Assembly: GCA_000091205.1 (NCBI GenBank)
Contig: AP006494.2
Reading direction: 5' to 3' (one strand)
Origin: Cyanidioschyzon merolae
Lineage: Eukaryota
Length of the DNA stretch: 64,000 nt
How positions within the stretch are numbered: position 1 is the first letter of the stretch; each line of letters begins with the position of its first letter. The notes beneath the pieces were generated by a model that saw only the letters and a program-made list of their open reading frames with translations, did no database searches and was not told the origin of the DNA. The translations under genes were made by a program, and so were the position numbers. Shown here piece after piece: positions 1 through 44,889 of this stretch.

Positions 1-413
1 AACTCCTTGCCGATTATTTGTACGCGATTTCAGTTGCCCCAGGCTCTGCGGAGTATGCGATCAAGACGCTGATGCATCCCGGAGCCTGGGCCCGTGCACC
101 CTTGATGGATCGCTTGACAGCGCTCTCACCGACGGTACCAGTGGTCTTTCTCTACGGAGCAAACGATTGGATGGATCCGGATGCTGCCAGGACCCTGATT
201 GACAAGGCGCGGGAACTTGGAAACGGAAATATGTGCCTTCAAATCGTACCGAATGCGGGTCATTATCTATTTATAGATAATCCGCAAAAGTTCAATGAGA
301 TATTTCTGCAGGCGCTGAGCCGTCAGATACTCGGATCCGCGGTCGTTTGTGCAGATGTTACCAACACGCAGCGCTCCATTTCCTCGTCCGTGCTGAACTC
401 GTCGAAAGCATGA
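1..413 (+). CDS. alpha/beta-hydrolase fold protein, C-terminal part (ABHD4/5-like); gene begins upstream of the window
   Basis: The frame is open from base 1. The C-terminal block ...VVFLYGANDWMDP...VPNAGHYLFIDNPQKFNE matches the catalytic-His region of ABHD-type hydrolases. Where the stop lies within 330-413 is uncertain. Confidence 0.55.
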   Translation, partial: LLADYLYAISVAPGSAEYAIKTLMHPGAWARAPLMDRLTALSPTVPVVFLYGANDWMDPDAARTLIDKARELGNGNMCLQIVPNAGHYLFIDNPQKFNEIFLQALSRQILGSAVVCADVTNTQRSISSSVLNSSKA

Positions 414-3400
414 ACGGAGAGTTTTGTTGGCTTGCATGCGGCGACCTCGGGGATCTTCAAGCAAAATCTTTGCAGTCCAAATCGATAGAAAACGCGGTTC
501 GCGTAGACAACCGTATCGGAGCCGGCATCACGGACGACGAGCCAAGCATGTCGCTTCCTGTACATATGCTCATCCACGGGTTTCTCGGTTCGCTGCCCCA
601 ATGCTATGTCAATACAGTGAACGTCTATGACGCGTTTCCGTCTTGTCCCTTGCTGTATTGCTTGCTGGACCCGAAGGGAACCTCCTTGCCGAGGATGAAG
701 ATGAAAGCAAGCATCGTTTCTGGATTGAATGCTCCCGCCAGAATCCACCATCCCCGCCGCTGCCGCCAGTTTTGCTTGCAGGTGACGTCCACGTGCGCGA
801 CGTTCTATCCGGTGCGGCTCGTTTCCGAGATCCGCTTGGCGCTCATGCTGCTCATGCTGCTCATGCTGCTCATGCTGCTCGTGATCCATCTGATGCAGGT
901 AACTCGTACAGCGCTCCCGGTATTCGGCACCCATGTGATGCTCAATCTGTGCTATGCGGCCATCGGGCTCCTCGCCAACAGCATCATCCAAATCGTCTGC
1001 AGGCTTAGTGAGGTGGCTCTGCTCTCGTGATCGCAACGGCGAGCCACTAACCATAAGCTCGAACGAAAGCGTTCGAGTGATCTTGTGGAACTGGCGGAAA
1101 GCGCTCCAACAAAGACGGGCGAGACCCGTAAACACCAGTGCCGGTAGTAGTCGCTCCCAAGCGCCACTGAGCTCCTCCAAAAGCCTCCGCCAGCAAAACT
1201 GTGACGTCGGTGGCGATCTCAGCAACCATATCAGCAGTGTGCGTACAAAGAGAACGGGCTGCACTTTCTTAGGACGCGCTTTTGGTCCTCGAATGGGCCA
1301 CAGCGAATGAGGGCGTCCAGCTTCATCGCTCGATGCGAGGTCGCGCGGCAACCAACCAGGACCGAGTTCGCTAACCAGTGTTTCAGCGAACATGTCCAAA
1401 AGCGCACTCCTGGTTATCACCCTACCTGAAAACCGATCTAAAATCGTACGCGCTGTCTGCACTTCGATACCGAAACAGAATGCCAGCCGGGGAGCGACGA
1501 CATCGCGACAATCAAAGCGCCCGTCATTGCGAATTCGGAGCAAGTTGCATTCGCTGATAAGTTTTTCTGTGACGAGTCTGGTCATTAGAGCTATTCTGTC
1601 GAGCTCGCTGCCCAGCGATATCACTTCGCACAGCGGCCTCGCAGCCGTATGCTGCAGGTAACGGTAGCGGTAGAGAGTGCGGCTCATGAGCTCAGCAACC
1701 TGCTCGGCAGTCTGCAGTGTGCCCCGTGCTACCTGATGAACAATAAATAACTCCCAGAATAGATCAGCGACAGAGTCTATGACTGGAGGCCAATTCGCCG
1801 GCAGCTGCATCAGTCCCTCAAGATGCGGTGGCACTAGGACCGAAACCGGACCTCTGCATATCCTGGCAAAGTAGCGACAACTCCAACGGAACAGGTTCTC
1901 CCGTGGGCGCGACGATGCCTGCGCAAAGCCGTTGCCCACCATGAATGCGAAGGCGTATTCATTGCCATCGCTCGGGAGCAGGAGTAATTCTCCGATCTCG
2001 ATGACTACGACGCGGACATTGGTGTGCCCCGGGGGTGCACCTGTCTCGTAGCTGGTACTCCTCGTGGGTAACCAGATGCCACGCTCGAGGAGCGCTCGCT
2101 CCGCGGCGGTTAACGACGCTGCCAAACGTGCAGGGCACTCACTGCGGTACGGACTCTGTCGCGCTAGCTCTGCCCCAAGTAAGAGCGCATCGCGCATGAC
2201 CGCGCAAACAGCGACGAATTGTGGTCCTCGAGGAGGCGCTATCCGACGAAATGCACGCCAGAAGCGCTTCGCCACCAGCCGAGGCCGGTTCAGAAGTGCC
2301 TCGTCCGCAGTGGTAATGAGCGGCGAAGCCTCACCCGGAGGTTGCCACTCAAACTGGAGCATTCGAGACGGATCCAGTCCAAGCCAGCGCAATACTTGGT
2401 CGACATTCTGGAAATGCTCCGAAAAAAGAACCTGCTCAGCTCTTGCCAGATTCATGAGCAAAAACTCGTAGCTTGGATCCCATGATACAGACTCGAGGTC
2501 GTCCAGAAGCCACAGTGGTGCTTGCACACGGAGCTGTTCCGACTGCATGCTATGCACGAGCGAGGCAAAGTGTTTGGGGTCACCGATCAGGAAGCGCGCT
2601 TCGTGCTCATCGTCGTCAGCGCATGAAAGTTTTCTATGCCACTGCGGATCAATGCTTAGCTCCGCACAGCGCAACTTGCAGCTTTGTACGAGTTGGCGAA
2701 AAACTTCACGATGCGAGCGATGTGGAGACACATAGCACACGAGGCGTTTTTCACGCGCTACCGTGAGGCAAGCCGCGAGGCACCGGATCCGTTCGGGCCG
2801 GAACGGTATCGCAAACAATACCCCAGGTCGCTGTCCCGGAGCGCAGTCCATCACCATTTTGAGATAGCCTGGAATCAGGGTCTCACAGGCCGCCGCTAGA
2901 CGACTAAAGTCGTGAAATACAAAGCGGCCGATCTCGGGGGCAATTCGGTTATCGTCAACTGGCCACGGGAGGTCGCGCAAACACTCAGCTTGCAGAAAGT
3001 CGTCAACCAGATGCTCTTCGGCGGCAATTCTCCAGAAAGCGACTGAGGTTCGCTGCCACGGTGGAACCGAACAGCATCCGACAAGGTGATATTTCGCTTC
3101 ACGGAGGACCAGGCGAGCAGCGAAAAAGGCTCTTTCACCAGTGGCATCCTCGAGGGATACCCAGAGCGCTTCCGTACTGTCGATACAGGAGCTATCCTGC
3201 AGCGCGATGCGACATTCGAAACGCAACGTGTCTGCTGAAACGGGTAGAAGCGCGCTCTCGAAGGCTATCCAGGAACGAACGGCACACTGCTGACGCCCCA
3301 GAGCGCTGCATAACACCGCGGGAGGCATCCAGTCGCCGACTGAAGGCGAAAAGCAACGCAGCGCCTCGGTTTCGCTGTGTTGCTCTGGCTGGCCTTTGCT

Positions 3401-7746: not shown

Positions 7747-8487
7747 TTACGGGTACCTATTGCTGCGCCTTCGCAGAAGATGATCCAGTAACCACCCGCG
7801 ACGCTGTGATCTTCTTGTCCCTCTAGACTCCAATTCAGGTGTTTTTAATGTATAGTTTTCGTGACTCGGAGCGCTTGCTGCTTCCGGTGCTCCTCGAGCT
7901 CTTTTCTCAGGTCGATGGTGAGACTTTTCATCGGAAAATTCTGTAGTATCTTGGTTCTCCGGTTGACCACCGTACTCTCCGATCATTAGAAGCTTACTCA
8001 ATCGCGCTTGCAGGATGTCCTTTGCAACTTCACTATGTCGTACATGACGAAACCCGGTGCTCTCCGCCGCACCAGTGCCGCCGTTTGGATACCGGACGCC
8101 GTACAAAGAGGGCACGCGTGCGTCGTCCAACTGCACGTTCCTTGGCAGCGCCGCGAAACTTTCCTCAGCATCCAGCAACTTCCGGACAACCTCAACGGAA
8201 CGTTCGTGGACTCGGTGCAGGAAGCGTTCTGCACAAGAACCAGCCTGTTCCTCCGGGGGCAGACTTTGAGGTGACGGTCCCGCCAGTTTTCGGGGCGTTA
8301 CCGGTCGCTCACCGTTCTCAGTTGCAGCTGCGGGACGTCGCTGGTCTATCAGCTCCAAGGCCACAATGTTCCCGGAAGCTGCTTCCATACACAGCCGGCA
8401 GAGCTGCACTGCACAAGTACTTACGCACACACGCCCCCGACAATCGCTGGACGCAGCAAGTGCTGTCTGCTGCAAACAGGTGTACAT
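7747..8487 (-). CDS. hypothetical protein (246 aa)
   Basis: Single ORF with no recognisable motif. It sits just upstream of the left end of non-autonomous element #1. Confidence 0.25.
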   Translation of the reverse strand: MYTCLQQTALAASSDCRGRVCVSTCAVQLCRLCMEAASGNIVALELIDQRRPAAATENGERPVTPRKLAGPSPQSLPPEEQAGSCAERFLHRVHERSVEVVRKLLDAEESFAALPRNVQLDDARVPSLYGVRYPNGGTGAAESTGFRHVRHSEVAKDILQARLSKLLMIGEYGGQPENQDTTEFSDEKSHHRPEKRARGAPEAASAPSHENYTLKTPELESRGTRRSQRRGWLLDHLLRRRSNRYP

Positions 8488-8586
8488 GAAAATACGGGTT
8501 TTAGCGGTGCCCTCGTGGGTGCCCCGTTTGAACTAGAACAATCGATCTTTTTGATACAATCGTATACAGGGGTCTTACAATTTTTC

Positions 8587-10035
8587 AACTCGATCCTGTT
8601 TCACCTCCGTAGTGTTTTGCAGCAGGAGATCGAAATCTCTGTGCAATGTACCCTATAGGTCTTATACGAATCGCTTGTAGGATATATGCTTTACCATATG
8701 GTGCAAGGAGGCTTGGATTCCTCCAGCGGCTCAGTCATACCACAGTACTCTGATGCTCGAGGAAAACTGAAAGTAGCAAGTATATGCGCTCTGTGCGAAC
8801 TCCGATATTCTCAAAGACTGCTTGCGATCAACGGCACGGAAACAACCCGCTGATCACCTTAAGGAATGCAAGTATGATGACAGTAGCCGCCCTAGGTGTC
8901 TATGTTTCTCAACAGCATGTTCGTGTAGTCTGTAAAACACTGGGACAGAATCACAAAAAGTCTTGCTAAACGCACTGCCATCTTCCACCGGAATCGCAAC
9001 GACAGTGTTCCTGGAACGTCGCTATCCGTTTAAAGCGTAGGGATTTCGGTTTTGGTTTTACAGTCGACGAGACTTTTTTCGGGCGAAATGGACAGTACAT
9101 ATTTGAGTATTCGCGGAGAAGCGAGCCCGTTGTATACCCGACGGAACCCGAAGAGAACTCGGATATCATTATCTGTTCTAACTGCAGTGCATATACTTGG
9201 CGGCCTCAGTCCCGCCCTTAGACAAGGCTCAAATAATAGCACGCAATACGCCGAATCATAGAAGACTCTTCCCTGACATCTTGCGACGTTATTGTATTGG
9301 AAAACGTGGCATTGCGCCATTCCACTTGCGTTCGAGCTTTTGCAGAATCTATCGGGGTGGAGCTGTTTTTCATTCCGCCATTTACCCCGTGGCTCATCTC
9401 CATCGGAGGAGTGTTTTCTATCGTGAAACGGAATGACCGTTTCGCTGGGTGGATCGCTGAAGTGTTCAGCACACGGTAACACCGCGGCTATTTGTCTTTC
9501 TTCCACAAGTCCTTTTCCCTCCGGAAAGGTCTTCACGCCAGGACATCAACAAGTGCATTCATTCGAAGAAGTAAAAAATCCAAGAGAAAGCTATGGACAT
9601 GGAAGGCGAGGATCCTGGAAGCCGTGTGTCGCCGGCTTCGACCAAAAACGAAAAAATCCTCTCCTCGCCGACCATTGAGCGAAGAAGAGCAAATAACGAA
9701 GATGGAAAAGGGAGATATGCGAGAAATGGTGTTTGCCCAGCGGGACGATGACGAGGCTGTAGGCACACAAAGGGCATGAGTTTGAGGAGTCCTCGCAAAG
9801 ATGCGTTCAACCAGCGGCTAGAACCGCATGGAGTTCATGAACCGAGACTCGAAAGCTGCTACGAATATCAGGAGATATGCGGTGCTGAAGACGAGACCCG
9901 CGGGGCTGACAAGAGCGAGCCAACTTTCTGGGACAGCCTCTCAGACTCGAAGTGTGCAAGGAAAAGCTGAAGCCGATAGCAGGGACCCGGTCAAAGAAGG
10001 CCGGAACGCGTCTGTGAGTAAATATATACATTTAT
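8587..10035 (+). mobile_element. non-autonomous Fanzor-family element, copy #1 (~1.45 kb)
   Basis: It is collinear at nucleotide level with 48598-50035, and in reverse complement with 19285-20775 and 59400-60810. The 5' block 9540-9700 (aaaaatccaag...ggatcctgg...tcgcc) and the 3' block 9790-10035 (EFMNRDSKAATNIRRYAVLKTRPAGLTR... = degenerate RuvC-III) are shared with the long Fanzor copies. The right terminus is ...ggcgtctgtgagtaaatatatac. Confidence 0.75.
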
Positions 10036-10387
10036 CCTCATTGTTCTTGGGACATTTTTGAACATTTTGATCCCTTACCTGCCGCCGCGGTGCAATTTCG
10101 CAGCTCGAAGCTTATCGGAGTCGCCTAAATTCGCGTGCGACGTTTTTTGCGCGAGGTGCAAGTAAACTTCAGAAAAGCCACGAGTAATGCGTCATGATGC
10201 AGGACTTGCTCTTCCCTTCGTGACCACTGTCAACCATCTTTTCGCTGCAGACCATACCGCGCCAAAGTTGCGTTCGGGCTTAGCTTGCGCGCGGCTCAGC
10301 GGGCCTGCAGACCACCGGCGGCGGCGTTGCTCGCTGTCGCCTCGCGCGGCACGGACGCGTGCACCCAGCTTTGGACGGCATGCCAGC

Positions 10388-14688: not shown

Positions 14689-16957
14689 CTTGATAACAGT
14701 AGGAGCGGTATGCTAAAGCGTACGCTTACAACACAGGAGTATACTAACGCCGCACGAGTCCGGGTAGCGACGATTCCCCGCCGATTGACTTTGGTACATA
14801 TCTTGACATTATGGTTTCATGGATCGGCACATGGCGCACAACGGAGGCGGCCGTAGCCGATCCGGCAGGTGCCTGATAGGAAGCGTCGACCTCAAAATTG
14901 CTGGTACACTGGCAGGCACCCGAAGTAGCTTCTGGATCCATGCGTTCTTTATCTGCCTTAACAGAAGGAACTTTATCGGGGTCGTTACCAGCGCATTCGC
15001 CCAATAGCTTGTACACATGTCCTGACGCTGTGATCACCAAGGTCTCGAAACGGAGCACGCGCGCCATTCCTGTTTATTCGTGCTCGTGCGTCCGAAAGCA
15101 TACGCCAGAGCGCCCTCGGCGGTCATCGACTGGGTCGGAAACATCGTGCCCCATTTGTGGGTTTTGTTGCATTCGTTTTCGCACTTTTTGAGCGTCGTGC
15201 CGAAGCTACTCTGAAGACTGTCCCGCGATGCAGTCTTGCTTTGCACGCCAAGGCACACCGGATTCCGGCATCCAGCGGTTGCTGGCTCGACAAATGGTGC
15301 TAGCTAGTGCTTTTTCCGAACAAATTTTCGATCGGGGGCTTCTGCACCATCTCGTTTTGTAATGCGCGTCCGTCACCATGATTTGCAAAGGCATATCGTT
15401 TGGGATGCTGCGCTAGAAGCCCTTTTTCATCCGAGTACGAATAAACGGAACAACATGAACTACTCGCATTATTCCTACCTTGAGATACGTTTTCGACCCC
15501 TCTCGTTAAATTTACGGCCTCGATATTCGATATACAGCTGTGGCGGCTTACGGATTCAAGATGTGGGTTTACGATCCTAGGTCGTTATTACGGAACGGCT
15601 TGTTTGCCTCTTCGCCGCTGGAAACCTTGATGTCACAGGAATCGACAAGAAATAGCAACGCTCGAACAAGATTTCCTTAAATAACCGGTATCCTTATAAA
15701 ATCCATACTGGAAGCTTCCACTCTTCTAATTTCCTTACGTATACCATATGCAAAACGTGCATTATTCAGGATTTCGATCCTTCTGTTTCAAAGCAGCTCA
15801 TTGGTGTACGAATGCTCGCCACTGGATTGACAAAGAGAAAACTCGACGTCGATCCTCGATGCCTTGTTCACAAGCTCATGCCGAAAGCTCTCTGGACTTG
15901 TCTTGCAAAGTAATCCTTTCTACTTGAAAAATGAATCCTCCAATTTTTGCGGCATGCGACGAAACAGCGTTCTACAAGAGCATGTGGTCCTTCACAAAAA
16001 CTGCCCTCGGACGCTCTCGTCTCATCTGTTTGCGTCGAAAGCGCTCTGGGACTCGTACTTGAGTTATAGCAGCGATCGCTTCCAATGGAGAGTGCATCAC
16101 AGTTTTGTAAGTAGCGAGTGCAGACAGATGATTATATCCGAGTTGGTCTCCAGCCTTGATTTTGTCTGCGGTACTTTTTTTCATCGTGAACAGTATCGGG
16201 TAGAAAAAGCTTCTATCGAATGGGACATCGTACGCTTTTGAGTGCAGCGGATAATGCACTCTTGGAACGCATCGTCCAGAGGAAGTCGGTGATCAGACCT
16301 TATGCCTCTGGGCACGGAAACGGAGGAGGATATCGAGGTGAACCTTCCGTGCCGTTCAAGGGCATACATTGACCTCTGAAGCGAGTCTTGACGTGGCATG
16401 GGGAGCTCTCGGAGGAGAAGCACGTATTGCGGGCCTATTGGAACACCTGAATACAGTCAAGTGTCCCCGTTGTGAAAGGCATTCCGACGCTGTATACAAA
16501 GAAGAGGGAAATAGCAAGTGAAAAGGCAGTAACAACTTTCGTCTGTGCAGGTGAAGCGTAAACAGCAGTCGGATGCGGCGAGATCGAGACTCTGAGGCAG
16601 GTGCGAACAACCGTGGACTACTGACAATAGAGCTTCAGCAAAACAGGCGTCTAGCGCGTTCAGAGCCGAAGATATGAGAGAGGGAGTTGGGGCAGCCGCC
16701 GACAAAGCCGCCAGGGGCTGGTGTTGACAATTGTGAGAAGAGGCCCAAAGTTTGGCGTGTATGCCCGAGTAACTGGATATATTCAATCTTATTCTGCTAC
16801 GGGTGTCGTTTGGTGCATGTATTCTGAACAGCGAAATGTCATAGACGCTTCCATATGCATATGCATTCATGATTCAGTCGATTTGCCCATGACGACAGGA
16901 ACGTGTCAGTGCCCTTGCGAACGCACGCTCTGCACGAAAAGCTTCTACCTTATTCCT

Positions 16958-19285
16958 TTATGGTGCCACTCGAAGGGCGTTCCCGGATGCTTTAGCGGTT
17001 GCCCTCTCACCTGAGACGTACATTTCATCGATGACATGGGCGTACTTTTCTTGTACGACACGGCGCTTAACTTTCAGGGTTGGGGTGAGCTCGCCGCCTT
17101 CCACGGTAAGCTCGGTGGGAAGGATTCGAAAGTACTTGATCGTTGCATACGACGGCAGTGTCGCGTTCACTTCATCGATGTAATGCTGAATCACATCAAT
17201 GATTCGCTTATCTCTGGAGAGTATATCGGGGCGAGACTCCGTAGATTCTATGCCAATCTTAGAGGTCAACGCCGGGAGCGCACCCTCATCTAGCGTAATC
17301 AGTGCAGTGCAGTACGGTTTTCCGTCGCCAATAACCACTACTTGGGCTATGCCGTCGAACGTTTTAAGCCGCGCTTCTGTTGGCTGAGGCGCGATGAATT
17401 TCCCGCCTGATGTTTTAATCAGATCTTTCAGGCGATCGGTGACAACAAGATAGCCGTCCTCATCGAAACTCCCAACATCACCGGTGTGCAAGAACCCAGC
17501 ATTGTCAATAACTTGGGCAGTACCTCGTGCATCATTGTAGTAACCAGCGAAGACGTTATCGCCTTTCGCGAGGATTTCTCCATCCGCACCAAGAACTACT
17601 TGAATCCCACGGAGGGGCAGGCCCGCGGTCCCCGGCTTGATGGCGCCTTTTGGCGTCAGCGCGATGACACCCGTGCTCTCGCTCTGGCCATACAGCTCCG
17701 CGATGTCGATACCTATGCTCCGGAAGAAGCGTGAGATCTCTGGATTCAGCGGCGCTGCTCCCGAGGCGAACGTATGACATCGATCGAGCCCAAGCAGCGT
17801 CAGGATTTTGCCAATGATGTGCTTCTGGTAGAGGCGCCACTGGACGGTGGTCCAGATGGCTGGCCGTTGTCCGCGTATGCTGTTGCGACACTCACCAATG
17901 GATGCGCCGTTTCGGAGTGCCTGGCTGATGACGGCGCGTCGAAGGAGCGCCTCCGAGGCGAAGCGTTGCTTGAGCGCGGACGCAAACTTTTCCCATACCC
18001 TTGGCACGCACAGGAACAGGGTCGGACGCACCTCCGCCAGGTTGTTCTTCACTGTAGCAAAGCTCTCCGCAAAATAGACGGCATTCGCATCATAGATAGC
18101 AAGCAATTCACCTTGAATGCGCTCCGCGATATGGCAGAGTGGGAGAAACGACAGTGTAATATCGCCGCCGTTTGAACCTACACAACGGGATATTTCCTCT
18201 GCAATGAAATAAAGGTTGCGATGTCGATAGCATGCTCCCTTGGGTTTTCCCGTTGTCCCCGAAGTGTATACGGTCATGCAGATTGCCGACGGCAAAATGG
18301 CTCTCGCTTGGCGTTCAATGTTCGTTGCTGCGCTCTCAAAGTGCCGTCGGCCTTTTTTCAATAGTTCGCTCCACGAAATATTTTTCCAGTGTGGTTTCCG
18401 ACCGCATCGAGGCGAAACTTCTCGTGTGGTATCATTCATGAGCACGACGAGCTGAAGCTCCCCAAGCATTTCCGCAGTATCTAGCAGCTTTGCGTACTGC
18501 ATTTCAGAGTCCACGAAAACAACTTTCGCTCGAAAATTCTCACAGACAAACGCAACTTGCTCCGCTAGATCGTTCGGATATAGACCGGTGGTACAGCCTG
18601 CAAGACACATGACCGCCAGGTCCGCGATAAGCCATCTGGGTGAGTTCGAACCCAAGATGGCAGCGTGGTCGCCGGCCTCGAACCCGCATTGCCTCAGGCC
18701 GTTAGCGATTTGACAAACCAGTCTACCGTACTCCTTCCACGAGATGGATACCCATCCGTCGCCTTCTTTCGATGCCAGGGCAGCAGAATCCGCACAGTTT
18801 CTCCGAATCCCATGAGCATTATCGAAAAAAAGGTTCAATAAGGTTTTCGTTCTAGTCTCCTCTTGAGTAAGCGCGAGTTGTGGGGGCTGCTCTCCCTGTA
18901 AACCGGGAGAAAGGAACGAGTCGCTTGGAGACCCTTCAGGATTCTGCGTGAAGATTCCTGCAAGGAATGGAGCTGCATTATTCGGCTTCTTCGAATCTTC
19001 AACCTTGCCTAACGTTCGCTCACGAGTTACCCGATGCGCCATGTTGTACGACCTAGACGCTGAGCCCTGAGGCGTCTGGAACGTGTTCTGTGCCCTGGGC
19101 TGCAACCACAGCGACGCAAGCGTGTCATTGCCGTGCTGTTCGCAATTTCCCTGCACGCCCAGGTGAAGGTTGCTGCTGAGCGATCGCATAGGCGCCGGCC
19201 CCGGTGTCGGGCTTGCTGCAGGGGTAACAAAAGCATAACCAGAGTCACTTGGCACGTCACTGGTACGAAAATGTTTCATAACCAT
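16958..19285 (-). CDS. long-chain acyl-CoA synthetase (AMP-binding family)
   Basis: It contains the AMP-binding motif YTSGTTGKPKG, LYGQSESTG and the fatty-acyl-CoA synthetase C-terminal region. The first ~80 aa are low-complexity, so the real start may be the internal Met near 19042. The annotated ATG directly abuts the right end of Fanzor-family element #2. Confidence 0.85.
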   Translation of the reverse strand: MVMKHFRTSDVPSDSGYAFVTPAASPTPGPAPMRSLSSNLHLGVQGNCEQHGNDTLASLWLQPRAQNTFQTPQGSASRSYNMAHRVTRERTLGKVEDSKKPNNAAPFLAGIFTQNPEGSPSDSFLSPGLQGEQPPQLALTQEETRTKTLLNLFFDNAHGIRRNCADSAALASKEGDGWVSISWKEYGRLVCQIANGLRQCGFEAGDHAAILGSNSPRWLIADLAVMCLAGCTTGLYPNDLAEQVAFVCENFRAKVVFVDSEMQYAKLLDTAEMLGELQLVVLMNDTTREVSPRCGRKPHWKNISWSELLKKGRRHFESAATNIERQARAILPSAICMTVYTSGTTGKPKGACYRHRNLYFIAEEISRCVGSNGGDITLSFLPLCHIAERIQGELLAIYDANAVYFAESFATVKNNLAEVRPTLFLCVPRVWEKFASALKQRFASEALLRRAVISQALRNGASIGECRNSIRGQRPAIWTTVQWRLYQKHIIGKILTLLGLDRCHTFASGAAPLNPEISRFFRSIGIDIAELYGQSESTGVIALTPKGAIKPGTAGLPLRGIQVVLGADGEILAKGDNVFAGYYNDARGTAQVIDNAGFLHTGDVGSFDEDGYLVVTDRLKDLIKTSGGKFIAPQPTEARLKTFDGIAQVVVIGDGKPYCTALITLDEGALPALTSKIGIESTESRPDILSRDKRIIDVIQHYIDEVNATLPSYATIKYFRILPTELTVEGGELTPTLKVKRRVVQEKYAHVIDEMYVSGERATAKASGNALRVAP

Positions 19286-20775
19286 CGAGTATATATATAC
19301 CTACCCGCAGACGCCTCCCAGCCTTTTTACCTCTCGACTGTTATATCGGCTTCAGCCTGGCCTCGTAGATCCTGAGCCTGAGTCGCTGCCTCACAGCATC
19401 GGATCGCGTCAGCGCCGTAGGTCTCGTCTTCATCGGCTGAAATCGATGGTGGCGTTGAGGTCTCGGTTCACGAACTCTGTGCACTCATGGCCTCTGGTGG
19501 AACTCATCAGTGCAAGGAGTCCTCGAACGCATGCCCTCTGTGCGACTAGGGTCTCGTCATCGACCCGTCGGGCAAACGCTTTTTCTCGCCTATCTACTGC
19601 CTTCCTCTCCTTCGTGCTTTTCGTCACTTGCTACTTTTTGCCTTCGATGGGTGATGAGAAGAGGATTTTTCCGTTTGTTTTCGGCAGCGGGCGATACCGG
19701 CCCTCCAGGGTCCTCGAATTCCATATCCATTCCTTTCCCTTGCATTTTTTCTTACTGCAAATGAATGCAATTCCCTACGCCTTTAGGTGGGGACATTTCT
19801 GGAGGGGGGTGGCTTTTGCGGAAGAAAGATGAATTATAGCCCGCTGTCGCCGTGTGCTGAAAGCTTCAGCGATTCGCACAGTTGAGCGATCTTTACCTTT
19901 CTCGATATGAAAGACTTATCTGATGAGGTTTAATCACGTAGAGTACGGAGAAATGAAAAGCAGCTCTACCCCAACACATTCGTCGAAAGCTCGAACGCAA
20001 GAGGAATGGTGAAATGCTGCGTCTGACCGTAGAGGGACGCCGCCAAAGGTCAGAGGAAAGTCTTCTATGATTCGACAAAGTGGGTGCTGTTGTACGTGCC
20101 TGCTCTACGGGTGAAGCTGAAGGAGCCAAATCAATCCACCGCAGCTCGAACAGAGGATGATGTTGTCGTTCTCATCGTGCTCGATCGGACCTAGAACGAT
20201 CTCCCTCTCCGCGAATGCCCAAACATGCACCGGCCGTTCCGTCCGACGCACGTCTCATCGACTAAAACGCACGAACTGACGTCTCTCTGCTTTATACGGA
20301 TAGCGACGTTTCAGGAACGCTGTCGATGCAATCACGATGGACGATGCCCTTGGGTGAGTTAGGACTCTTCTGCGACAGTGTCCCAGGGTTTCCAGGACCA
20401 TAGGAACAAGCTGTTGAGAAAACGGAGACACCTGTGACGGCTATGACCATATCCTTTGCTTTTCTTAAGATGATCAACGTGTCGTTTTCTACCATTGACG
20501 GCAAGCAGTCTCTAAAAATATCTGTATTTGCCACAGAGCGCACATACTTGTTTCTTCCATTGTTCCTCAATCATCAGAGTCCTGTGGTATGACGGACCTG
20601 AAGGAGGAATGCTGTCCTCCATGGACACTTCAGTAACGAACATACCCCACAGGCAATTCGTCTAGAATCTGCAGAGTATATTACATAGGGATCCCGATCT
20701 GCTGCGATGCAACGCACCAGGAGTGAAACAGAATCGAGTTGACAGTCTCCAGTTCTGGGACGGGGATAACCAGCG
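19285..20775 (-). mobile_element. non-autonomous Fanzor-family element, copy #2
   Basis: It is the reverse complement of copies #1 and #5 along the full length. The RuvC-III relic EFVNRDLNATIDF is on the minus strand at about 19430-19480. The right terminus ggcgtctgcgggtaggtatatatatactcg is immediately followed by the ATGGTTATG start of the acyl-CoA synthetase gene. Confidence 0.75.
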
Positions 20776-21092: not shown

Positions 21093-22268
21093 ATGAGCCT
21101 GGCTGGCGACTTACCACGTGTGCAAGCGTACACTTCGTCGAAGCTCTGGCGAGCCACGTACACCGTTGTCCTCAGCGCTGAGCGCGATGCAAGCGCGTCA
21201 GCAGCCAAGCTTGCTGCCTTTTCCAACGCCTGCAGCGATTCGACTTTATTGAAACTCGACTGTCTAGACGCATCGGAAACCTATCTTGCTGACGAACCCG
21301 AGCTCCGCAGGGCGGTCGAGGTCGAGCGCGGCCAAAGGGCCACTACCCTGGAGTCGTACTACACGAAACACTGGGAATGGAGCGGTGCGAAACATCTGCA
21401 TGTGGCTGAAGGGCCGGAGTTCTCAACGCAGCGGGACGGATTGCCTTGCGCCCATGCAGCCAGTCTGCCCGCAGACTGGCAAGTACAACCACCGCGAAAG
21501 TTGTTTGAGGACGATGAATTTATCGCGTACTCTAAACCCGCTGGGGTCCTGTCATCGACAGTTCTGTACATGGCCATGATGTCTGAGTCGCCAGAGCACC
21601 GACAAAGTGCACAGGCCTGGCGCCTAGCGAACCGACTCGACCGGGATACGAGCGGCATCTTACTCTTTGGAAAAACGCCTTTGGCGAATCAAGTCTGTAA
21701 TGCCCTGACCACAAGACGCTCAGGCAGCCTAGAGAAGCTCTATATCGCAAACTTGCACCAAGTGCAATGGAAACATATGCAGCATGATGATCAAATGCCA
21801 CCCATGTTTCAAGTTGGGTGTGTGCTACGGGTCATAAGTGGGCACGGCACCACAAGGCGGGGACTGCACCGTCTCTACCCTCTTGAATGCGTCGGGCAAC
21901 GTCTGCACGATCGAATGCGCCGTCCAGTTCGTATTGCAGAGACTTGGTTTCGCATCGAAAACAGGACGCCGCTTAAATCCGAGAATAGTCTTGTCGGTGA
22001 CTTGGAAGCACATCCAGCGATGTTGTACCGTGTTCTGTGTGCACCTGTCACGGGGCGGACACACCAGATCCGTCTCCATGCACATGCTCTGGGTATGCCT
22101 GTTCACGGCGACGTTCGTTACGGCTCTCTGAGTGATTTACAGGGAACAAACTGTCACCATTTGCATGCAGTCGCGCTCGCATTCACCACTTCAGAAGGCA
22201 GGAAAATTTATATCGAGGCGGAAAGCCCTGCGTGGTTAGATTTTTCGGGTGAGGTAGAGCATCCTTAA
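21093..22268 (+). CDS. RluA-family pseudouridine synthase
   Basis: HRLDRDTSGILLFGKT carries the catalytic Asp motif of RluA/RsuA-type synthases. The C-terminal H..LG.PV.GD region is also present. The ORF track opens at 20925. Confidence 0.75.
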   Translation: MSLAGDLPRVQAYTSSKLWRATYTVVLSAERDASASAAKLAAFSNACSDSTLLKLDCLDASETYLADEPELRRAVEVERGQRATTLESYYTKHWEWSGAKHLHVAEGPEFSTQRDGLPCAHAASLPADWQVQPPRKLFEDDEFIAYSKPAGVLSSTVLYMAMMSESPEHRQSAQAWRLANRLDRDTSGILLFGKTPLANQVCNALTTRRSGSLEKLYIANLHQVQWKHMQHDDQMPPMFQVGCVLRVISGHGTTRRGLHRLYPLECVGQRLHDRMRRPVRIAETWFRIENRTPLKSENSLVGDLEAHPAMLYRVLCAPVTGRTHQIRLHAHALGMPVHGDVRYGSLSDLQGTNCHHLHAVALAFTTSEGRKIYIEAESPAWLDFSGEVEHP

Positions 22269-23987
22269 ATGCCTTGCCTACGATGCGCGATGCTACGTGT
22301 AGACTGGAACGAGAGACGCTCTACGCGCTCAGCGTCCAGAGTGGCATTCGGGGTACGATCTGCTTCGAACTCGATCAGTGGGAATGGATTGGGGTCAAGC
22401 GGCAAGCGACATCGTGCATGCAAGCCGCTTCCCTGGAAGCAGATAAACTTCGCGCATGCCCGGGATTCCTGGTAAGACTCATCGATCTCATGTGGTAAAT
22501 ATCGTGAACACAAGGTCTATCGCTGGCCGACCGCCTTTGACGCATACGAGACGTGGATGTGTCTCATAGATTGGAGACGTGGACGAAAAACTTCACTCGT
22601 AAGTGTTTTGTGCAGCAGGCTCAACATCGAGCTGCCTCATATTTAGTAAGTTTGTCTGGTATGCAGACAGGTGCGAACCGCTTCAAAAATTCCAGCAATT
22701 GTCGCGTCGGACCTCGAGGCGTTTTGATGCGAACTGCACGAAGCTCTGATCAGCTTGTCGCAGCGTTGAATGGGCGTCATTGAACAGGGATTTCCAAAAC
22801 GCGTCATTGCTGTTGGCAACCAGAGCAGTGATCACCTCTCGCCCATAGATTCCCCCATGCTCTACCGACTCCAAACCAGTCTCTGCATTGGATAGAGGCC
22901 AGATCGACCTAGCAATGTCCCGAGCGCGACGCTCAAGTCGAACGCTTGCGGGTACGCTCCATGCGCCGCTGTTGGCGCTGCTGCCCTCGTGCAGACACAG
23001 AACAGCTTTGGATTGCCTTGAGAGGCATCGGCTCGTGGCACACCGGTCAGGGTGCGCATCCGGGATCCATGCGAGTGCTCTGTCTGACAGAAGTGCGCAC
23101 GTTTAGCCTGTGAACGTTTGACTGGCTCAGTGTTCTGGAACGGCTCGCCAGTGCGCCGCAGTGTTTCCTGTTCACGACCACGTATGGCTCATTGAGACTG
23201 AAAGCGCATGTAATTAAATGTTCTGAGCTCACCCGCACGAGTGAATAGCTGATACTTGGTGGCAAATGAGAGCCACGGCACAAGCCGGCGGCCGTGAGCG
23301 CGCCTGGACCGAACCCCGTCCTCGCGCCAAACCAGTCGCAATCATATTCTAAGCTTGTGTAAAGGCGGTTTTGTGACAAGTTGCACCTTAATGTGTATTT
23401 TCAAGCGGGAACGCTCGAAAATGCGCGTGGGAACAGCGAAAGATTTTGCGGCTGAATCGAGCACACTTCTCGCGTAGCACGAAGTAAGTGTCCACGATTC
23501 GCGTTCTGCCGGTGGAATGTTTTGACGCGGCAGTTTTTCATATCGAATTCAAACTGGAATACAGACGATGCTCCAGCGTCATTCTACCCATTTTAGATTA
23601 AAATGGGACGCGCTCCTTACTCGGGTGTCCAGGAGAAACGTTCGCTTTCATTCAATTATCGCAAGCCAGACATTTTGGGACAGTTTTGGAAGCAGATATC
23701 TTTTTCTCTCGCTCATATCCGAGTTTCCATCGCCGCTCTCTCCTCTCGCCGCGGCATCGTTATCGGCATTCAAAGGATGTCGGTGGTGAGTTTGAAGTTT
23801 CAACTTGGTTCTTTCCTGCTGTTTTTCACAGGTTTGATGCGCAGATGGTGGTCGCCATCTACGCTTCGCTTGCCCGTTTGATCGCCTTGTTATATAGCAT
23901 ACGTTTGCCTTTCGCAGCGGGTACACTTGGCTCAGTTCAGACGTTCCCGTACTTCCACCCCATTTCCTACACCCCGGGGGCTTCCTT

Positions 23988-24488
23988 GTGGTGCATAAAC
24001 GCTCACCTCATCGCTCAGCAAAAGTAGTTGACTGGTGCAATGGGCTTCCTGTGATGCGCTCCTCTGTTTCATGCCCAGTATTGTACGCTCCAATCACCGG
24101 CTTCTTCGCGCGAGCCATTTGGCGAGTACTCTGTCGGAGGCACCGTAAAGAGCATGGTTTCGCATTTGATACGGAATTTGTGGAACTCGATGTTGCCCAA
24201 AATGAAAAAGCACCGGAAGGAAGCCATAGGCTGGAGATCAAGTCGACATATCTCGATCCGTCTGCGCCCGTATCAGACAAAACGGTTGCGCATTATCCAC
24301 AGGAAGCCAGCGCTGCGATAACTCAACTCCGAGCGCGGGACCTGTTTGCTTTCAAACAGAGGAGGCGGATGCCTTTGGAAGCGTATCTCAAGACAGGCAT
24401 CGTGCTGCCGTTGAATGCCGTCTCCTTGGTGGCCAAAAATAAACAAATCTTGGTCCTTCTGAGCAGAATCGATTATTTGACGCGATAG
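23988..24488 (+). CDS. hypothetical protein (166 aa)
   Basis: ORF only. Confidence 0.15.
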   Translation: MVHKRSPHRSAKVVDWCNGLPVMRSSVSCPVLYAPITGFFARAIWRVLCRRHRKEHGFAFDTEFVELDVAQNEKAPEGSHRLEIKSTYLDPSAPVSDKTVAHYPQEASAAITQLRARDLFAFKQRRRMPLEAYLKTGIVLPLNAVSLVAKNKQILVLLSRIDYLTR

Positions 24489-25639
24489 TTTTAGAGAACT
24501 TTCAGTAAGAGTTCTTGAATATGTCCCCAATGGAGCAGGTCGAAGTTTTTCCTCGTCAATCCAGTGACGTGCATTGCTGCGTCCGTGGATCACATTGAAA
24601 GAGAAAGATCCAAAACTTGAAACGTATTTGATTTAAGCATGCCAAACCTGAGAAAAGGAGAAGCGTGGAGACTTGTACGTAAGCATTGAATGCTCGATTT
24701 CGGTCATTCGACGAGCCCTCCTTTGGGGGCATCGCAAATCATCTCGGATCCCGCAAATGAAAGAGTTCCGGCGGCTACAAGTCCAGGGAGCCACCCAAAA
24801 ACGCCTCCGAGAATCCCAAAACTATTATTGAATTCGTAAGCACGCATGGCTTCACTTCGAATGCCGAGGCCTTACATCCGAACAGAGTTCGAGAAATCGA
24901 AAACCATGAAGAGAGCGAGCAGTGCTCTCTTCCATTTTGATAGAACCCGGGTCATCGATGCCAAAAACTCGGTGCAGCACTTTCGGATTGTATGCAGCTA
25001 TGCACCCAGTTGCTTTCGAGAAAGCGTCCATTATGCTGCACTCTACCCTAAGGTTCCATTACCCATATTTTCTCTCGGAGGTAATGGTCGTTTTGTACGT
25101 TCTATGTGCGCCAAGTGCATGCCGTGAACATCCGCTGTATGGCCTAAACCGCTAGTGCGGATGCAGCATCGGGACAGTACGGCTTTGCCTTACAACTGAG
25201 GTCGTCGGCTCGAGGCGTGCTGCTCTTGACACAAGGTCGGGATTCATAATCATTCTGGGAGCCTGCAATCTGCGCTGATAGACGTCCTGCCTGCGACAGC
25301 GCGAAGCGATATACTAGGAGATGACTGCATCGTGGGCGACGCCCAGACGCAGCACATCCGCTCCTTGCCCCAGTATAAACGGCTTCGCAGACGAGCTGCT
25401 CAGGTCTCACTATAGCGCAAGCCACTGCCGAGTCTCACTGTAGCGCGAGCCAGGCAGCCTCGTCCGGGTTGCGGGATCTCCCTACTGGAAGGTATACTTT
25501 CGCGAATGCGGCAAACTTTTTCCTCTTCTCACTTTTACCGAAGAGGTGGGGATTGTTATCTCGTCGCTAGTTTGTGCCTAGTTTCTGTTCTTTTTTCTAT
25601 AATGCGCTCGATACGTGCACATCCATATCTCGCAGGCAT

Positions 25640-28168
25640 TAGACACGACGCATATCTCACCGCTGATGGGAAACGCGACCCCTCTCAGATGTAGACTCGC
25701 ACCGGAAACACGCGAAGCAGCATGTGGAGCATGCACTGTTGCTGGGGACGAGGTCCATGTACGACAACATCATGGTCTACCGATATTAAGCGTGTTGCTC
25801 TAACGCATGCTTTCTATTTGCGTTCAAGTCCTAGCAAAATATAGTGTTTGTTCGGAATTCTGCTTCAGCCCACATGCGAGCGTGTCCAAGAGTTTTTTCG
25901 TTTTTTTAGCATACGCGTTCGAAGTGCGCTCACTTTCAAAAATCAAAATTCAAGGAAAAGTTACGGACATACAAGTCCAGGATCCTGGAGGCCCAGTGTC
26001 GCCAGGTTCGACACGAAATGAAAAACAATGCTGAGTCCAGAGGAACAGGAGAAGACGAAGAAGCAGATGCAGGAGGCCAGGCGTCAAAAGCTGCATGAGA
26101 AGCGACAGTATGACGAGATGGCAATGGAAGCCTTTCTTCTACGTCAAATAAATGATCCGTACGAACAAAAGTTGCGAGAGGCTATCAGAAACCGTGTCGA
26201 GTCGTACTCCATGAGTATTATCAAGGCTTCGTCTTGGCTAATGCGTAAGGTGAGTAAGATGTACCATGACGTTACGGGCATCAAAATAGTCGAGGTTCCG
26301 GAGGAATTTTTCAACAAGACATTTGCTCGCCACCCCATGTTTGGCACAGAGTAGGCGTCGACGAGAAATGAGCGAGTGCATGCCCTCTACGAAAACCACG
26401 CTGAGTACCGCTTCAACGGTATTCGATACAGGGGTGATTCGCGTATTCACGAATAGGGAGCAATGCAGTGCGCTACGAACCTGAGGCACCAAATGATTAT
26501 GAACCTCGAACGTTTCGTGATTCGCTCCATCTTTGCGCTGTACCCGGGCCTCCCTCGTAACGGGATATGGAACACTACCAATGCCATCACAAACGGTTGC
26601 CAGCATGAAGATGAGATCGAATTCTTCAGCAAGCAGACATTGCACATTATCAGGAATGAAGATTCTGTTATCCGTGGGGCTGTTCAAGAGCACCGTGCGG
26701 TTCTTTGGCTGGTCAACCAAATAGAAAAGGTATCAGATATGAGAAAAGATGGAGAAGGATGTCGTCCCCTCATCCTCTGCTTTTTCGTGTTTTTGGACCG
26801 AGAAATCGAACGCAAGGCGGAGATGGAGCTGGGTGTGGGTAAAAAGGAAGAAGCAGAGAAACGGAAGGTTGCGCTTCTGAGGAAGCGCCTCAGTGTCGTT
26901 CCGTTGTTCAACATCAAGTCACATTTTGTGACAATCGACTCCGCAGCCCTTTACGTCACCATGAAGGAGATCAGTCCGGAGTTCGATGTGAGGAAGATAG
27001 AATTCACCGGTGAAAACCGGGAGACGTACTGTAAGAATATCTTTGATTTCAAACGTCTGAAAAAAATACGAAAAAGATATTCACAGGGACGATCGACAGC
27101 GATGGAGTATCCATATGCGTACCCTTTCGGCGCTTGAAGACAGATTGTCCTATTCCACCCTCGATATCGCCCGTGACGAAGCATGAGGATAGGAAGGAGG
27201 CGAATCTGGCGACGCAGGAGGTGCAGGAGAACGACTTTGTTGGAGGCGCGGGCCCTAGGAACATGAATATCATAACCACCGCTGCACCCAAGTGTGCGGA
27301 AGATGGAATCGACGGCAACATACGTTAGAAAGACATGCGTCTGTTAAAGCTCTCAAGAGCGAGATATTACCGAGATTCGGGAATAATGAATACGAGGAAA
27401 AAGACTGAGACGTGAAATGCAGGAGGGAATGAGCACTTGGAGGCGCTCAGCCCGGTACCTCTCAACGGAGCGGACTTTCAAGCTTTTCTAGAGTTCATGG
27501 AAACTCGTGCTGCTCATGACGAGGAGCTGTGGAAAGAGTGTACAGAGCACCGGCGGGCTCGTCAGCGTATGAACCTGTATAGAGGGGGCAGCATGCATTC
27601 GCCAAGATCATGAGTCAGTTGAGCGCCCTCAAGGAAGACGAGAGTCAAAAGCTCGTAGTAGCATATCTAGCAGGGCGCTGGGCACCCAACAAAGGTAGCA
27701 TACCCACTTCGTCGACGCGTGCCTACGTGAAGTGCGCACGCCGTTTTTTCCCAGTACCGATGGATGACTTTCGAAAATCCGACCCACACTACGAGTTGGG
27801 GGTGCATACTTCAGAGCTTAGGGATGGAGCGCAAGCAGCAGTGCACGAGAGCGATAGAAAAGTACGAAGAGCTGACGGAGCAGGAAACTGCACCGAGGAC
27901 CCGAGTTCGAGGTCTCCTTCCAACGGCGCGTTCAACCAGCAGCAATTAAATCAAGGAGTTCGTGAACCGTGACTTTCATGCTGCTATCAATTTAAGACGA
28001 TGTTCGGTGTTAAAGACGAGACCCGTAGGGCTGACACGCGCGATCCAACTCTGTGGGGCACCCTCTTAGTCTCAAGATGGTACAAGGAGAAGCAGGAACC
28101 GATCGCAAGCGCCTTGTCAAAAATGGCCGGAAATCGTCTTTGAGTGGGCGTGTCTAAATATACTCCAT
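25640..28168 (+). mobile_element. Fanzor (eukaryotic TnpB-like) element, long copy A, degenerate
   Basis: It is collinear with copy B from the left region (25640-25990 vs 42115-42440) through the protein-coding body to the conserved 3' block (27945-28168). The terminus is ...gtgtctaaatatactcc. Confidence 0.75.
26028..28066 (+). pseudogene. Fanzor/TnpB-like RuvC nuclease gene, copy A (multiple frameshifts and stops; RuvC-I Asp replaced)
   Basis: Segments in three frames are homologous to copy B: the N-terminal DPYEQKLREAI...FFVFLDRE, then [13 protein letters not shown]...NIFDFKRL. The RuvC-I region reads NDFVGGAGPRNMNIITTAAP, with GAGP where copy B has GADPG. The Zn-finger region is KCARRF and RuvC-III is EFVNRDFHAAINLRRCSVLKTRPVGLTRA. 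Confidence 0.7.
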
Positions 28169-28639
28169 GATTGTAGAACGTTTATCGTTTTGCAGAACAA
28201 GCTGAACAAACCTCACGGGATGCCGTCCCCGCTCCACGACTACGGACATACGTCAAGGCCGCAGCGGTTTGCGCGTTACCACTGCGCGTACTGCAAGTGC
28301 GTGCGCGACGGAGTCTGCACGACGCTTTGCGAACACGTTGGAGCTCTCTGCGTTCTATTGCTTCTCTCTGAAGGTGTTCACCTCACTATCGTTCTTTCCG
28401 AAAGTTTTCGCAGCAGCCTCTTGTTGCCTTTGAGAATGAGTCGGGATAACCAAGGTTTGCAACCACAAAGTCACAGCACGGCGTTCTGTGTGTTTGCGCC
28501 GTGGCCTCGAAACCGGAGTGCGGCCGGGACGCAGCGCGACCTGCGAGTCGGATGTCAGCGCTGGCCCCGTTTTTCCGCAGGTGGTGTCTCCATCTCCGCA
28601 GAACACGCCCAAAGGGAGAGGACGCTGAGGTCTCTGAAA

Positions 28640-38219: not shown

Positions 38220-38640
38220 GAACAGTGCCATACTTTTAGCGACTGCAACACACCGCCATGCACATCACAACGTCTCCGCAGACAGTAGTCGTCATCCGGA
38301 TCCCGTTGCACACGGATGCAGTGCAGAGGAACGATGCGCGCACCAGCAAACGCCTTTCAGAAAGCGAACGACGCCAGCGGTGTAGAGTAGTGGCGGCAAC
38401 CGCGCCCTGGACAATACGTCTCCAGCTTAGGTGCAGACGCCTCCTCGTCTTTCTCGACCGGCCACCTACTACTGCCTCCAACTTTTTCTCATATAGTTCC
38501 ACTTTGAGTGATTGTCCGACAAAATTCTCTCTGGTCAGCTCCGCAGGTCTTGTATCCATCATTGCACCAAGCCCGGAGACTAACCAACAAGTCACTTGCG
38601 GCCTTCCGAGAAAAGATAACGAATTAACGGTACATTAACG
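38220..38640 (-). mobile_element. Fanzor-family 3' fragment (#4), 5'-truncated at the LINE junction
   Basis: Its reverse complement matches copy B 44640-44905, including the C-terminal tail TRENFVGQSLKVELYEKKLEAVVGGRSRKTRRRLHLSWRR and ~100 bp beyond ggcgtctgcac. A degenerate RuvC-III remnant lies at about 38610-38635. Confidence 0.65.
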
Positions 38641-44760: not shown

Positions 44761-44889
44761 GAAGAAGTGGTGTGTGGCCGGTCGAGAAAAACGAGGAGGC
44801 GTCTGCACGTCAGTTGGCGACGATTTGTCTATGGCGCCGGCCGCTACTACTGCACGCCGTTGGCGTCTTTCGACTTTCGAACGGCGTTG

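Follow-up and report, generated by a model that had tools for sequence, protein, structure and literature searches.

The interspersed repeat considered here has been described twice under different names. Nozaki et al. (2007, BMC Biol 5:28; PMC1955436) reported 253 copies of a 3.2-kb WSV486-related repeat with transcriptional activity in the Cyanidioschyzon merolae genome and called its distribution random. Bao & Jurka (2013, Mobile DNA 4:12; PMC3627910) described the same family as CMe-1A / TE-N2_CMe, with about 150 copies, a 3169-bp consensus and a 734-aa Fanzor1 protein, and they included the CMe-1 protein in their Fanzor1 alignment, gave target-site duplications as 'not determined', recorded no terminal inverted repeats and listed the classification as unknown. 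With about 250 copies the family makes up about 5% of the C. merolae genome, one of the most compact among free-living eukaryotes. We analysed a stretch of 64,000 nucleotides of C. merolae DNA (contig AP006494.2), hereafter the window, whose dispersed repeats are this published CMe-1A or 'WSV repeat' family together with a shorter relative made of a decayed, putative DDE transposase and an internally deleted Fanzor. The complete copies in the window and most of their sampled metagenomic relatives lie head-to-tail at the start codons of host genes, an arrangement for which we found no report in the literature searched; the family and its Fanzor gene are already known, while the start-codon bias appears to be unreported.

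Placement near genes is known from several other mobile elements. Tf1 of Schizosaccharomyces pombe, Ty1/Ty3 and the Dictyostelium elements TRE5-A/TRE3 accumulate close to promoters and stay clear of coding sequence and 3' regions, P, Mu, mPing and Hermes prefer the 5' ends of genes, and TRE5-A and Ty3 integrate at a fixed distance and in a fixed orientation. The latter two are retroelements tethered to Pol III factors, whereas CMe-1A is a DNA transposon found at Pol II protein-coding genes, and its end is found within 0-100 bp of the start codon as compared to 100-400 bp upstream in promoter-targeting elements. Bacterial insertion sequences such as IS10, ISAba1 and IS1/IS2/IS5 carry outward promoters that drive the adjacent gene in one productive orientation. 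By comparison, the case of CMe-1A would be eukaryotic, fixed and genome-wide, concerning perhaps 4-5% of the nuclear genes, and the promoter activity of its end is putative. To our knowledge no gene-relative orientation bias has been reported for the Mariner/Tc1-type carriers of Fanzor1.

Placement of complete copies relative to host genes

Self-BLAST of the window revealed two groups of complete copies, namely four copies of ~1.5 kb (c1, c2, c5 and c6, with 68-70% mutual identity) and two long copies (A and B; Table 1). All six are co-oriented with the next downstream host gene and lie upstream of its start, and this part of the original prediction was borne out by self-BLAST, BLAST against the consensus, Pfam and the annotated gene starts. 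The claim that six of six is unlikely by chance was overstated for the window alone. Copies c1, c2 and c6 are located between divergent genes, where co-orientation is automatic, so that only A, B and c5 are informative and the in-window chance is about 1 in 8 and not 1 in 64. Specifically, c2 occupies the spacer between the genes for acyl-CoA synthetase (ACS, -) and pseudouridine synthase (+, 20925), ~24 bp separate the 5' end of c1 from the start of a divergently transcribed open reading frame (ORF) of 246 aa (7747-8487, -), and c5 is in a tandem context with the gene for mitochondrial glycerol-3-phosphate dehydrogenase (G3PDH) upstream. Both truncated 3' fragments of the window face the 3' ends of genes, and the orientation rule therefore covers complete copies only.

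Genome-wide, the bias in orientation and position is real. For a wider sample we used 80 hot-spring metagenome loci matching the consensus protein, from samples that also hold genes identical to those of strain 10D. Repeats were masked by paralog-level BLAST depth, genes were called with a dicodon model trained on long non-repeat ORFs, every 3' end was located, and orthologous sites were merged by flank similarity, resulting in 44 independent elements of at least 1.9 kb. Their downstream proteins all differ from one another, and Pfam confirmed 20 of the downstream ORFs as ordinary host genes. Thirty-nine of the 44 elements were co-oriented with the next host gene and 5 were not, where random intergenic positions give 47% (p=7e-9). 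Small same-strand genes intervene at three seemingly 'opposite' sites (Rpr2 in L033, a glyoxalase in L079 and ClpS in the window), and the 'opposite' count may still be slightly inflated, with L035 being doubtful. Complete copies of the short type showed the same tendency, with 8 co-oriented and 1 not.

Measured from the 3' end, the first ATG lay at a median distance of 83 bp (interquartile range 29-226). This distance was at most 50 bp in 14 of 39 cases and at most 150 bp in 26 of 39, as compared to a null of 7% co-oriented within 150 bp, and several 3' ends were found 0-20 nt from the start codon. Both neighbours could be called at 29 sites, comprising 20 divergent, 7 tandem co-oriented and 2 tandem anti-oriented spacers and no convergent ones. 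The medians of repeat-free spacers are 769 bp (divergent), 1326 bp (tandem) and 734 bp (convergent), and the elements are thus enriched in spacers that contain promoters as compared to 3' spacers of the same size. Contrary to the random distribution given in the genome paper (PMC1955436), about nine in ten full-length copies in this sample directly adjoin a co-oriented gene at its 5' end, in many cases with no host DNA left for a promoter.

These figures also bear on the view that geometry alone is responsible, i.e. that elements prefer or are tolerated in mostly divergent promoter spacers which are so short that an ATG is always near, with no orientation bias. Divergent spacers do harbour three of the six copies in the window and 20 of the 29 metagenome sites that could be classified, 39 of 44 against an expectation of 75% for promoter regions gives just p=0.02, the tandem sites alone (7 versus 2) are not significant, and in several exceptions the 5' end is also close to a start codon. 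However, the two ends of the element are asymmetric. In divergent spacers the 3' end is nearer to its gene in 17 of 20 cases (medians 65 versus 462 bp, p=0.0026), for divergent and tandem sites combined the nearest start codon is faced by the 3' end in 24 and by the 5' end in 5 of the 29 (p=0.0005), and insertion points are skewed toward the edge of the spacer (Kolmogorov-Smirnov p=0.0016). Moreover, locus L068 (6554-12254) holds two full-length CMe-1A copies head-to-head between divergent genes, both pointing outward, with each 3' end 37-142 bp from its gene. Because of this asymmetry we consider geometry alone a very doubtful explanation. As a control, TE-N2-like solo 5' fragments gave a mixed picture, and at about 6 they were too few.

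Empty sites and host start codons

In Cyanidiococcus yangmingshanensis the order helicase, fatty-acid hydroxylase (FAH), purH, 196-aa gene, RPL11, ACS is kept, as is the order borealin, prephenate dehydratase (PDT), HSP70, G3PDH, bioB, NUDIX, RING. We retrieved the orthologs of four insertion sites (c1, c2, B and c5) and detected no CMe-1 homology at any of them; the corresponding spacers are compared in Table 1. The intergenic DNA of Cyanidiococcus is too diverged for exact junctions, with the exception of G3PDH. There, the Cyanidiococcus protein starts with MRRSFSK, equivalent to window position 44908, and upstream host similarity (CTGCGTT) begins at ~44897, which places the end of copy B (...GAACGGCGTTGATGATG) 12 nt before the conserved start codon. 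The empty-site comparison asked for along with the original prediction thus yielded empty sites and one placed junction. It did not yield a target motif, and no polymorphic empty site was found among 16 contigs with an identical or >90% identical bioB, all of which share the layout of B, c5 and c6. For the homing-like mechanism offered as a third option, these strains spoke neither in favour nor against.

The proximity of copy B to G3PDH had been noted correctly, with the end given as ~44905 on the ATG. The element ends at 44895, the annotated ATG at 44890 falls within its terminal motif, and the copy B terminus overlaps or adjoins the first six codons of the annotation. Since the Fanzor stop codon TAG is mutated to TAT in this copy, the frame is open into G3PDH, and an 801-aa ORF (44554-46959) fuses the Fanzor C-terminus of copy B to G3PDH. 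Metagenome pipelines label this Fanzor-G3PDH chimera 'glycerol-3-phosphate dehydrogenase' (P0100, P0102), and a similar read-through ORF occurs in L022. For c2, the string ggtaggtatatatatactcg described as touching the ACS start is present. The element continues for ~28 nt further (ATGGTTATGAAACATTTTCGTACCAGTG), and the annotated ACS start therefore lies inside it; in other strains the gene call begins at M82, and the protein of Cyanidiococcus is shorter by 39 aa. Two RefSeq/GenBank 10D gene starts, those of ACS and G3PDH, are hence placed in transposon-derived sequence (19256-19285 and 44890-44907), and the true starts are probably downstream, at M33 or M82 for ACS and at the MRRSFSK codon for G3PDH.

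The gaps at the remaining window copies were partly revised. Copy A, thought to end at 28168 and 20 bp before an open frame, extends to 28195, past the point (28190) at which the ORF leading to ClpS opens. The gap between c1 and purH is shorter than the 150-350 bp given before, c5 lies upstream of bioB as claimed at ~204 bp and not about 240 bp, and the value of about 850 bp for c6 and OTC agrees with our range.

Two metagenome loci provide further close contacts. The first ATG is located 6 nt from the consensus end in L020 and 16 nt in L085, and the COPI_assoc domain of the former and the TPT domain of the latter begin at residues 16 and 15, respectively, which identifies each ATG as the true start. 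With start codons 0-20 nt from the element end no host promoter or 5' untranslated region (5'UTR) can remain in between.

Element ends

Alignment of the 3' ends of c1, c2, c5, c6 and A revealed that conservation runs well beyond the boundary assumed earlier, to about 28-45 nt past the TATATA string. The consensus of this short-type tail is ...GGAGGCGTCTGCG-GGTATTCATTTACyCTCCATGGTCGTGAAACGTTTTCGTTTCACTG, and every copy with such a tail carries an AT-rich box (consensus GGTATTCATTTAC) 40-48 nt inside the terminus. Copy A, for example, ends in the AT-rich box and a terminal repeat, ...CGTTTATCGTTTTGCAG. The original prediction had considered targeting of TATA-like sequence; this idea was rejected, as the TATATA string is the conserved internal box of the element itself and tails of the copy B type do not contain it.

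The last ~30 nt of the short-type tail repeat the CMe-1A 5' end, CGATGACAAAACGTTTACATTGACCATGG, imperfectly and in inverted orientation. Imperfect terminal inverted repeats of ~25-30 nt are thus present (5' end CGATGACAAAACGTTTACATTGACCATGG versus the reverse complement of the 3' end, CAnTGAAACGnTAAACGTTnCAnGACCAnnGAG, matched by eye and unscored), with copy-specific matches, for example in c1. Copy B and most metagenome copies carry another tail, that of the Repbase consensus. Across 27-40 copies the conservation extends ~10-13 nt past the Repbase consensus at both ends, giving GATTTTTTT before CGATGAC... at the 5' end and ...GAAAGGCG followed by TTTGTTGTTGGTG at the 3' end. We also considered GATTTTTTT and TTTGTTGTTGGTG as conserved flanking sequence and rejected this; they are best read as element sequence absent from the Repbase consensus. 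Neither a target-site duplication nor a target motif was recognised at either end of the element. The flanks following the ...CACTG terminus are AC, AC, AC, AT, AA and CT, in copies that are ~30% mutually diverged. Two hairpins precede the 3' terminus, with 79.8% of cells paired, and the two tail variants fold in different registers.

Family identity and coding content

Nucleotide similarity extends across most of the CMe-1A consensus in copies A (positions 1-3010, BLAST coverage 55-3010, 79-80% identity) and B (positions 638-3169, BLAST coverage 638-3145, window 42067-44886, 84-88% identity), while the short copies align only at 885-969 and about 2840-3084. The 79-88% identity of A and B, the size of 3.2 kb, the Fanzor1 ORF and the prevalence of truncated ORFs all agree with the published description of CMe-1A. 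Beyond that description are ends that are ~10-13 nt longer, the imperfect inverted repeat, the composite form with a DDE_3-like remnant, and the non-random placement at gene starts. The extended ends, imperfect terminal repeats and the DDE_3-like link exceed the 2013 account, with the DDE assignment being weak.

Six-frame translation of A and B revealed Fanzor/TnpB RuvC motifs distributed over different frames and interrupted by stops. We applied the Fanzor1 motif D-X(125,275)-[TS][TS]-X-X-(zinc finger)-X(5,50)-RD of Bao & Jurka (2013), read as the catalytic residues of RuvC I, II and III. Copy B holds all RuvC motifs including NRDFNAAINI, but in three different frames, whereas they are intact in the consensus protein and in a 747-aa ORF of locus L035. 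None of the window copies has an intact Fanzor ORF, all being frame-broken (that of copy A into pieces), and a Fanzor ORF of at least 650 aa is kept in only 1 of the 44 sampled elements, for which reason we regard the sampled elements as fossils. This single intact ORF, with three RuvC motifs, is that of L035 (906-3149, +). The L035 element is a candidate for an active or recently active copy, and P0042 (752 aa, on a 49-kb contig) is another. Pfam gave no match for P0042 or the L035 ORF at E-value cut-offs of 0.1 and 0.01, and phmmer of the Fanzor protein against PDB gave no match at E<=1. PF26935 is listed as precomputed for many homologs in the protein database and was not returned by the local Pfam scan.

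The first kilobase of the short copies translates, with frame breaks, into an IS630/Tc1-like transposase with VDET..., IIxDN...H and FLPPYSP-like strings. A stitched translation of c1 matched PF13358 DDE_3 at E=2.7e-5 and 24.5 bits, which is under the Pfam cut-off of 28.6 bits; c2 reached E=0.04 and c5 gave no match in this search. After the transposase part, ~60 codons of the Fanzor N-terminus are joined to the last ~90 codons. The order of parts in c1 is an imperfect terminal repeat, the frame-broken DDE_3-like remnant, a Fanzor N-terminal stub fused to the C-terminus (with an NRDxNAAxNI remnant), the AT-rich box and the terminal repeat. An undeleted form was found in L079 (8962-12221, +), where a DDE_3-like transposase remnant is followed by a near-full-length Fanzor (consensus 869-3082) and a short-type tail, with a glyoxalase-family gene abutting the 3' end. 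The short copies can therefore be regarded as internal deletions of a transposase-plus-Fanzor element, and L079 likely represents the progenitor architecture of the 1.5-kb copies.

This architecture resembles that of the Mariner/Tc1-type Fanzor1 carriers PUl-1 and PGv-1 (Bao & Jurka 2013), in which a DDE transposase and Fanzor1 are enclosed by terminal repeats, and it occurs here in L079 and, with the internal deletion, in c1, c2, c5 and c6. The terminus ...GTTTCACTG also resembles the CAGTG ends of Tc1. Unlike in Tc1-type elements, the DDE_3 match stays below the cut-off and no TA duplication was recognised (flanks after CACTG are AC, AT or AA). Taken together, the window copies are fossils of one old C. 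merolae DNA-transposon family with a Fanzor1 gene and, in the composite form, a putative IS630/Tc1-like DDE transposase.

Possible origin of the placement

The data demand a strong preference for positions close to start codons and a preference, by roughly 5:1, for orientations in which the gene is faced by the 3' end. We tentatively favour a scenario of biased insertion followed by orientation-dependent survival, with the 3' end supplying the transcription start. Insertion would be strongly biased to a few tens of nucleotides upstream of host start codons, at the transcription start site or 5'UTR end of promoter-containing spacers, and mainly insertions whose 3' end faces the gene would have survived. 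The 3' end, transcribed outward, could replace the displaced host promoter and 5'UTR. Host transcripts may then start inside the element, and selection, not the integration machinery, would set the orientation. Guide RNAs of Fanzor/TnpB systems must read across the right end into flanking DNA, a layout and read-out that Saito and colleagues reportedly set out for Fanzor in 2023. Selection on survival is favoured because a DDE-type transposase normally imposes no orientation, because the 3' end of a TnpB/Fanzor element must be transcribed outward for the guide RNA, and because the TATA-like box of the short-type tail is suitably spaced from the terminus. Among the options offered by the original prediction, retention for the supply of a promoter or 5'UTR has the best, though indirect, support, given start codons 0-20 nt away at several loci.

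Several observations weigh against this scenario. The last 200 bp show 1.2% differences between orthologous copies across strains as compared to 0.4-1.7% elsewhere in the element, i.e. no extra conservation. CMe-1A-type tails, e.g. that of copy B, lack the AT-rich box, and the commonest tail thus has no TATA-like sequence. Covariation of the 3' hairpins is not significant, the score being reached by 38 of 500 shuffles. Among the 5-6 exceptions, a start codon is often found 28-105 bp from the 5' end, which is hence tolerated there too. The sample consists of metagenome relatives chosen for near-full-length Fanzor coding capacity rather than of a census of the 10D genome, and distances run to the first in-frame ATG, possibly upstream of the true start. 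Finally, co-orientation is marginal under the 75% null, and the case therefore rests on the distance asymmetry.

An alternative, which we regard as unlikely, is directed integration, in which both the position, a few nucleotides before a start codon, and a fixed orientation are determined by the transposition machinery and hardly by selection, through tethering to the Pol II initiation complex, via single-stranded DNA exposed by transcription, or by an RNA-guided Fanzor step. It accounts better than survival selection for the extreme proximity of 3' ends to start codons, as under selection alone promoter-sparing positions further upstream should be at least equally tolerated, and it also fits the complete avoidance of convergent spacers. 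Orientation-specific targeted integration has precedents in compact genomes with TRE5-A of Dictyostelium and Ty3 of yeast. However, the transposase remnant is DDE_3-like, and cut-and-paste DDE transposases acting on terminal inverted repeats are normally orientation-blind. In addition, ~15% of the copies are opposite in orientation or have a convergent neighbour, the flanks past the last element nucleotides share no motif, and a guide RNA derived from the element's position cannot specify new, unrelated targets. Its combination with a portable promoter, i.e. transcription-coupled or RNA-guided integration in fixed orientation together with a 3' end that acts as a mobile promoter/5'UTR, is more improbable still; if true, a Fanzor element would drive the transcription of roughly 200 genes of C. 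merolae (about 4-5%).

We are equally sceptical of a scenario in which the element lies within the 5'UTR and its transcription comes from an intact host promoter upstream, with the host ORF reached by intron-like removal or reinitiation. Orientation would matter here since only the sense orientation would be processed correctly. The whole ancestral spacer does appear to be retained 5' of the element (median 462 bp as compared to 405-859 bp for orthologous Cyanidiococcus spacers), the elements are reported to be transcribed (PMC1955436), and 4 of 27 aligned CMe-1A-type tails end in a pyrimidine tract and CAG (TTTGTTTTCAG followed by GGG). On the other hand, translation of the host ORF would be blocked by a 3-kb leader rich in upstream ATGs, another 4 kb, made up of other transposon sequence, lies between copy B and HSP70, the nearest upstream host gene, and C. 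merolae has only about 26 intron-containing genes (PMC5405695). Intron-like removal itself was rejected, as most tails have no CAG and the 5' end (GATTTTTTTCGATGAC...) has no conserved GT donor.

If transcription starts in the tail, as we favour, transposon-derived promoters would serve a few hundred C. merolae genes, which bears on promoter choice and on gene models. Fanzor elements would then gain an effect at the level of the host beyond RNA-guided cleavage, and the outward read-out required by guide-RNA biology would be a reason for their tolerance at gene starts.

Genomic context and further repeats

By exact protein matches the window maps to chromosome 12 of C. merolae 10D (859,119 bp; PMC1955436), spanning purH (BAM80793) to bioB (BAM80806). 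The gene order according to Pfam and long ORFs is helicase (-), fatty-acid hydroxylase (+), purH (+), RPL11 (-), ACS (-), pseudouridine synthase (+), ClpS (+), RRM protein (+), borealin-like protein (-), prephenate dehydratase (+), HSP70 (+), G3PDH (+), bioB (+), NUDIX (-), RING (+) and OTC (-).

Table 1. Repeat copies, host genes and spacers of the window. Positions refer to the window.
Feature	Position	Strand	Remarks
c1, short type	8511-10066	+	3' end ~121 bp before purH ATG (10187)
ACS, annotated (BAM80796, 775 aa)	start 19285	-	
c2, short type	20800-19256	-	AT-rich box 19285-19300, terminal repeat onward to ~19256
A, full-length CMe-1A with short-type tail	24956-28195	+	annotated ClpS (BAM80798) start 28436, gap 240 bp
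Solo CMe-1A 3' fragment (consensus 2950-3169)	38336-38567	-	points to HSP70 3' end
Inverted CMe-1A 5'-region pieces (consensus 92-271, 457-534)	41517-41953	-	immediately upstream of copy B
B, 5'-truncated CMe-1A	42067-44895	+	annotated G3PDH ATG 44890; conserved ATG 44908, 12 nt past element
G3PDH, host gene (BAM80805, 689 aa)	44890-46959	+	mitochondrial glycerol-3-phosphate dehydrogenase
Truncated short-type copy (Fanzor N-terminal stub and 3' tail, no transposase part)	47774-48342	-	points to G3PDH 3' end
c5, short type	about 48485-50070	+	3' end ~204 bp before bioB ATG (50274)
CMe-1A 5'-region / TE-N2_CMe-like fragment (consensus 84-254, 72% identity)	53855-54027	+	NUDIX (-) / RING (+) divergent spacer
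c6, short type	about 60853-59393	-	850-920 bp before OTC (ORF ATG 58544, annotated start 58472)
FAH-purH spacer			Cyanidiococcus 1013 bp, window 2687 bp
HSP70-G3PDH spacer			Cyanidiococcus 859 bp, window 7185 bp
G3PDH-bioB spacer			Cyanidiococcus 1575 bp, window 3315 bp

Inverted 5' pieces next to a CMe-1A copy, as found upstream of copy B, are arranged in the same way in many metagenome copies. Within its Fanzor ORF copy B contains five tandem units of 75 bp (43542-43916), which correspond to consensus about 2117-2196 and code for an acidic repeat of 25 aa. At the same place, 1-3 extra units occur in many independent metagenome copies (loci L020-L099), and the segment therefore expands recurrently. 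A non-LTR retrotransposon remnant (38802-41950, +) with reverse-transcriptase ORFs, e.g. 39335-40315 and 40299-40679, separates the solo Fanzor 3' fragment from copy B. The remnant probably belongs to the 26 class I elements given in the genome paper, and in metagenome locus L001 a gene call just upstream of the copy B ortholog has an RVT_1 match.

Between RPL11 and the 3' end of ACS we observed a dispersed repeat (15817-15914 and 16017-16465) that is unrelated to CMe-1A and reaches a BLAST depth of 4 or more at the paralog level in comparison with the metagenome loci. The ~2.7 kb from the pseudouridine synthase gene to copy A (22268-24956) are without an annotated 10D gene (BAM80797 is followed by BAM80798), which is unusually long for the C. 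merolae genome, and hold two short repeat patches only (24176-24267 and 24605-24692). Furthermore, two tandem 67-nt units (54072-54211; 84% identical, 73 bp apart) are located in the divergent spacer of NUDIX and RING, just downstream of the TE-N2-like fragment.

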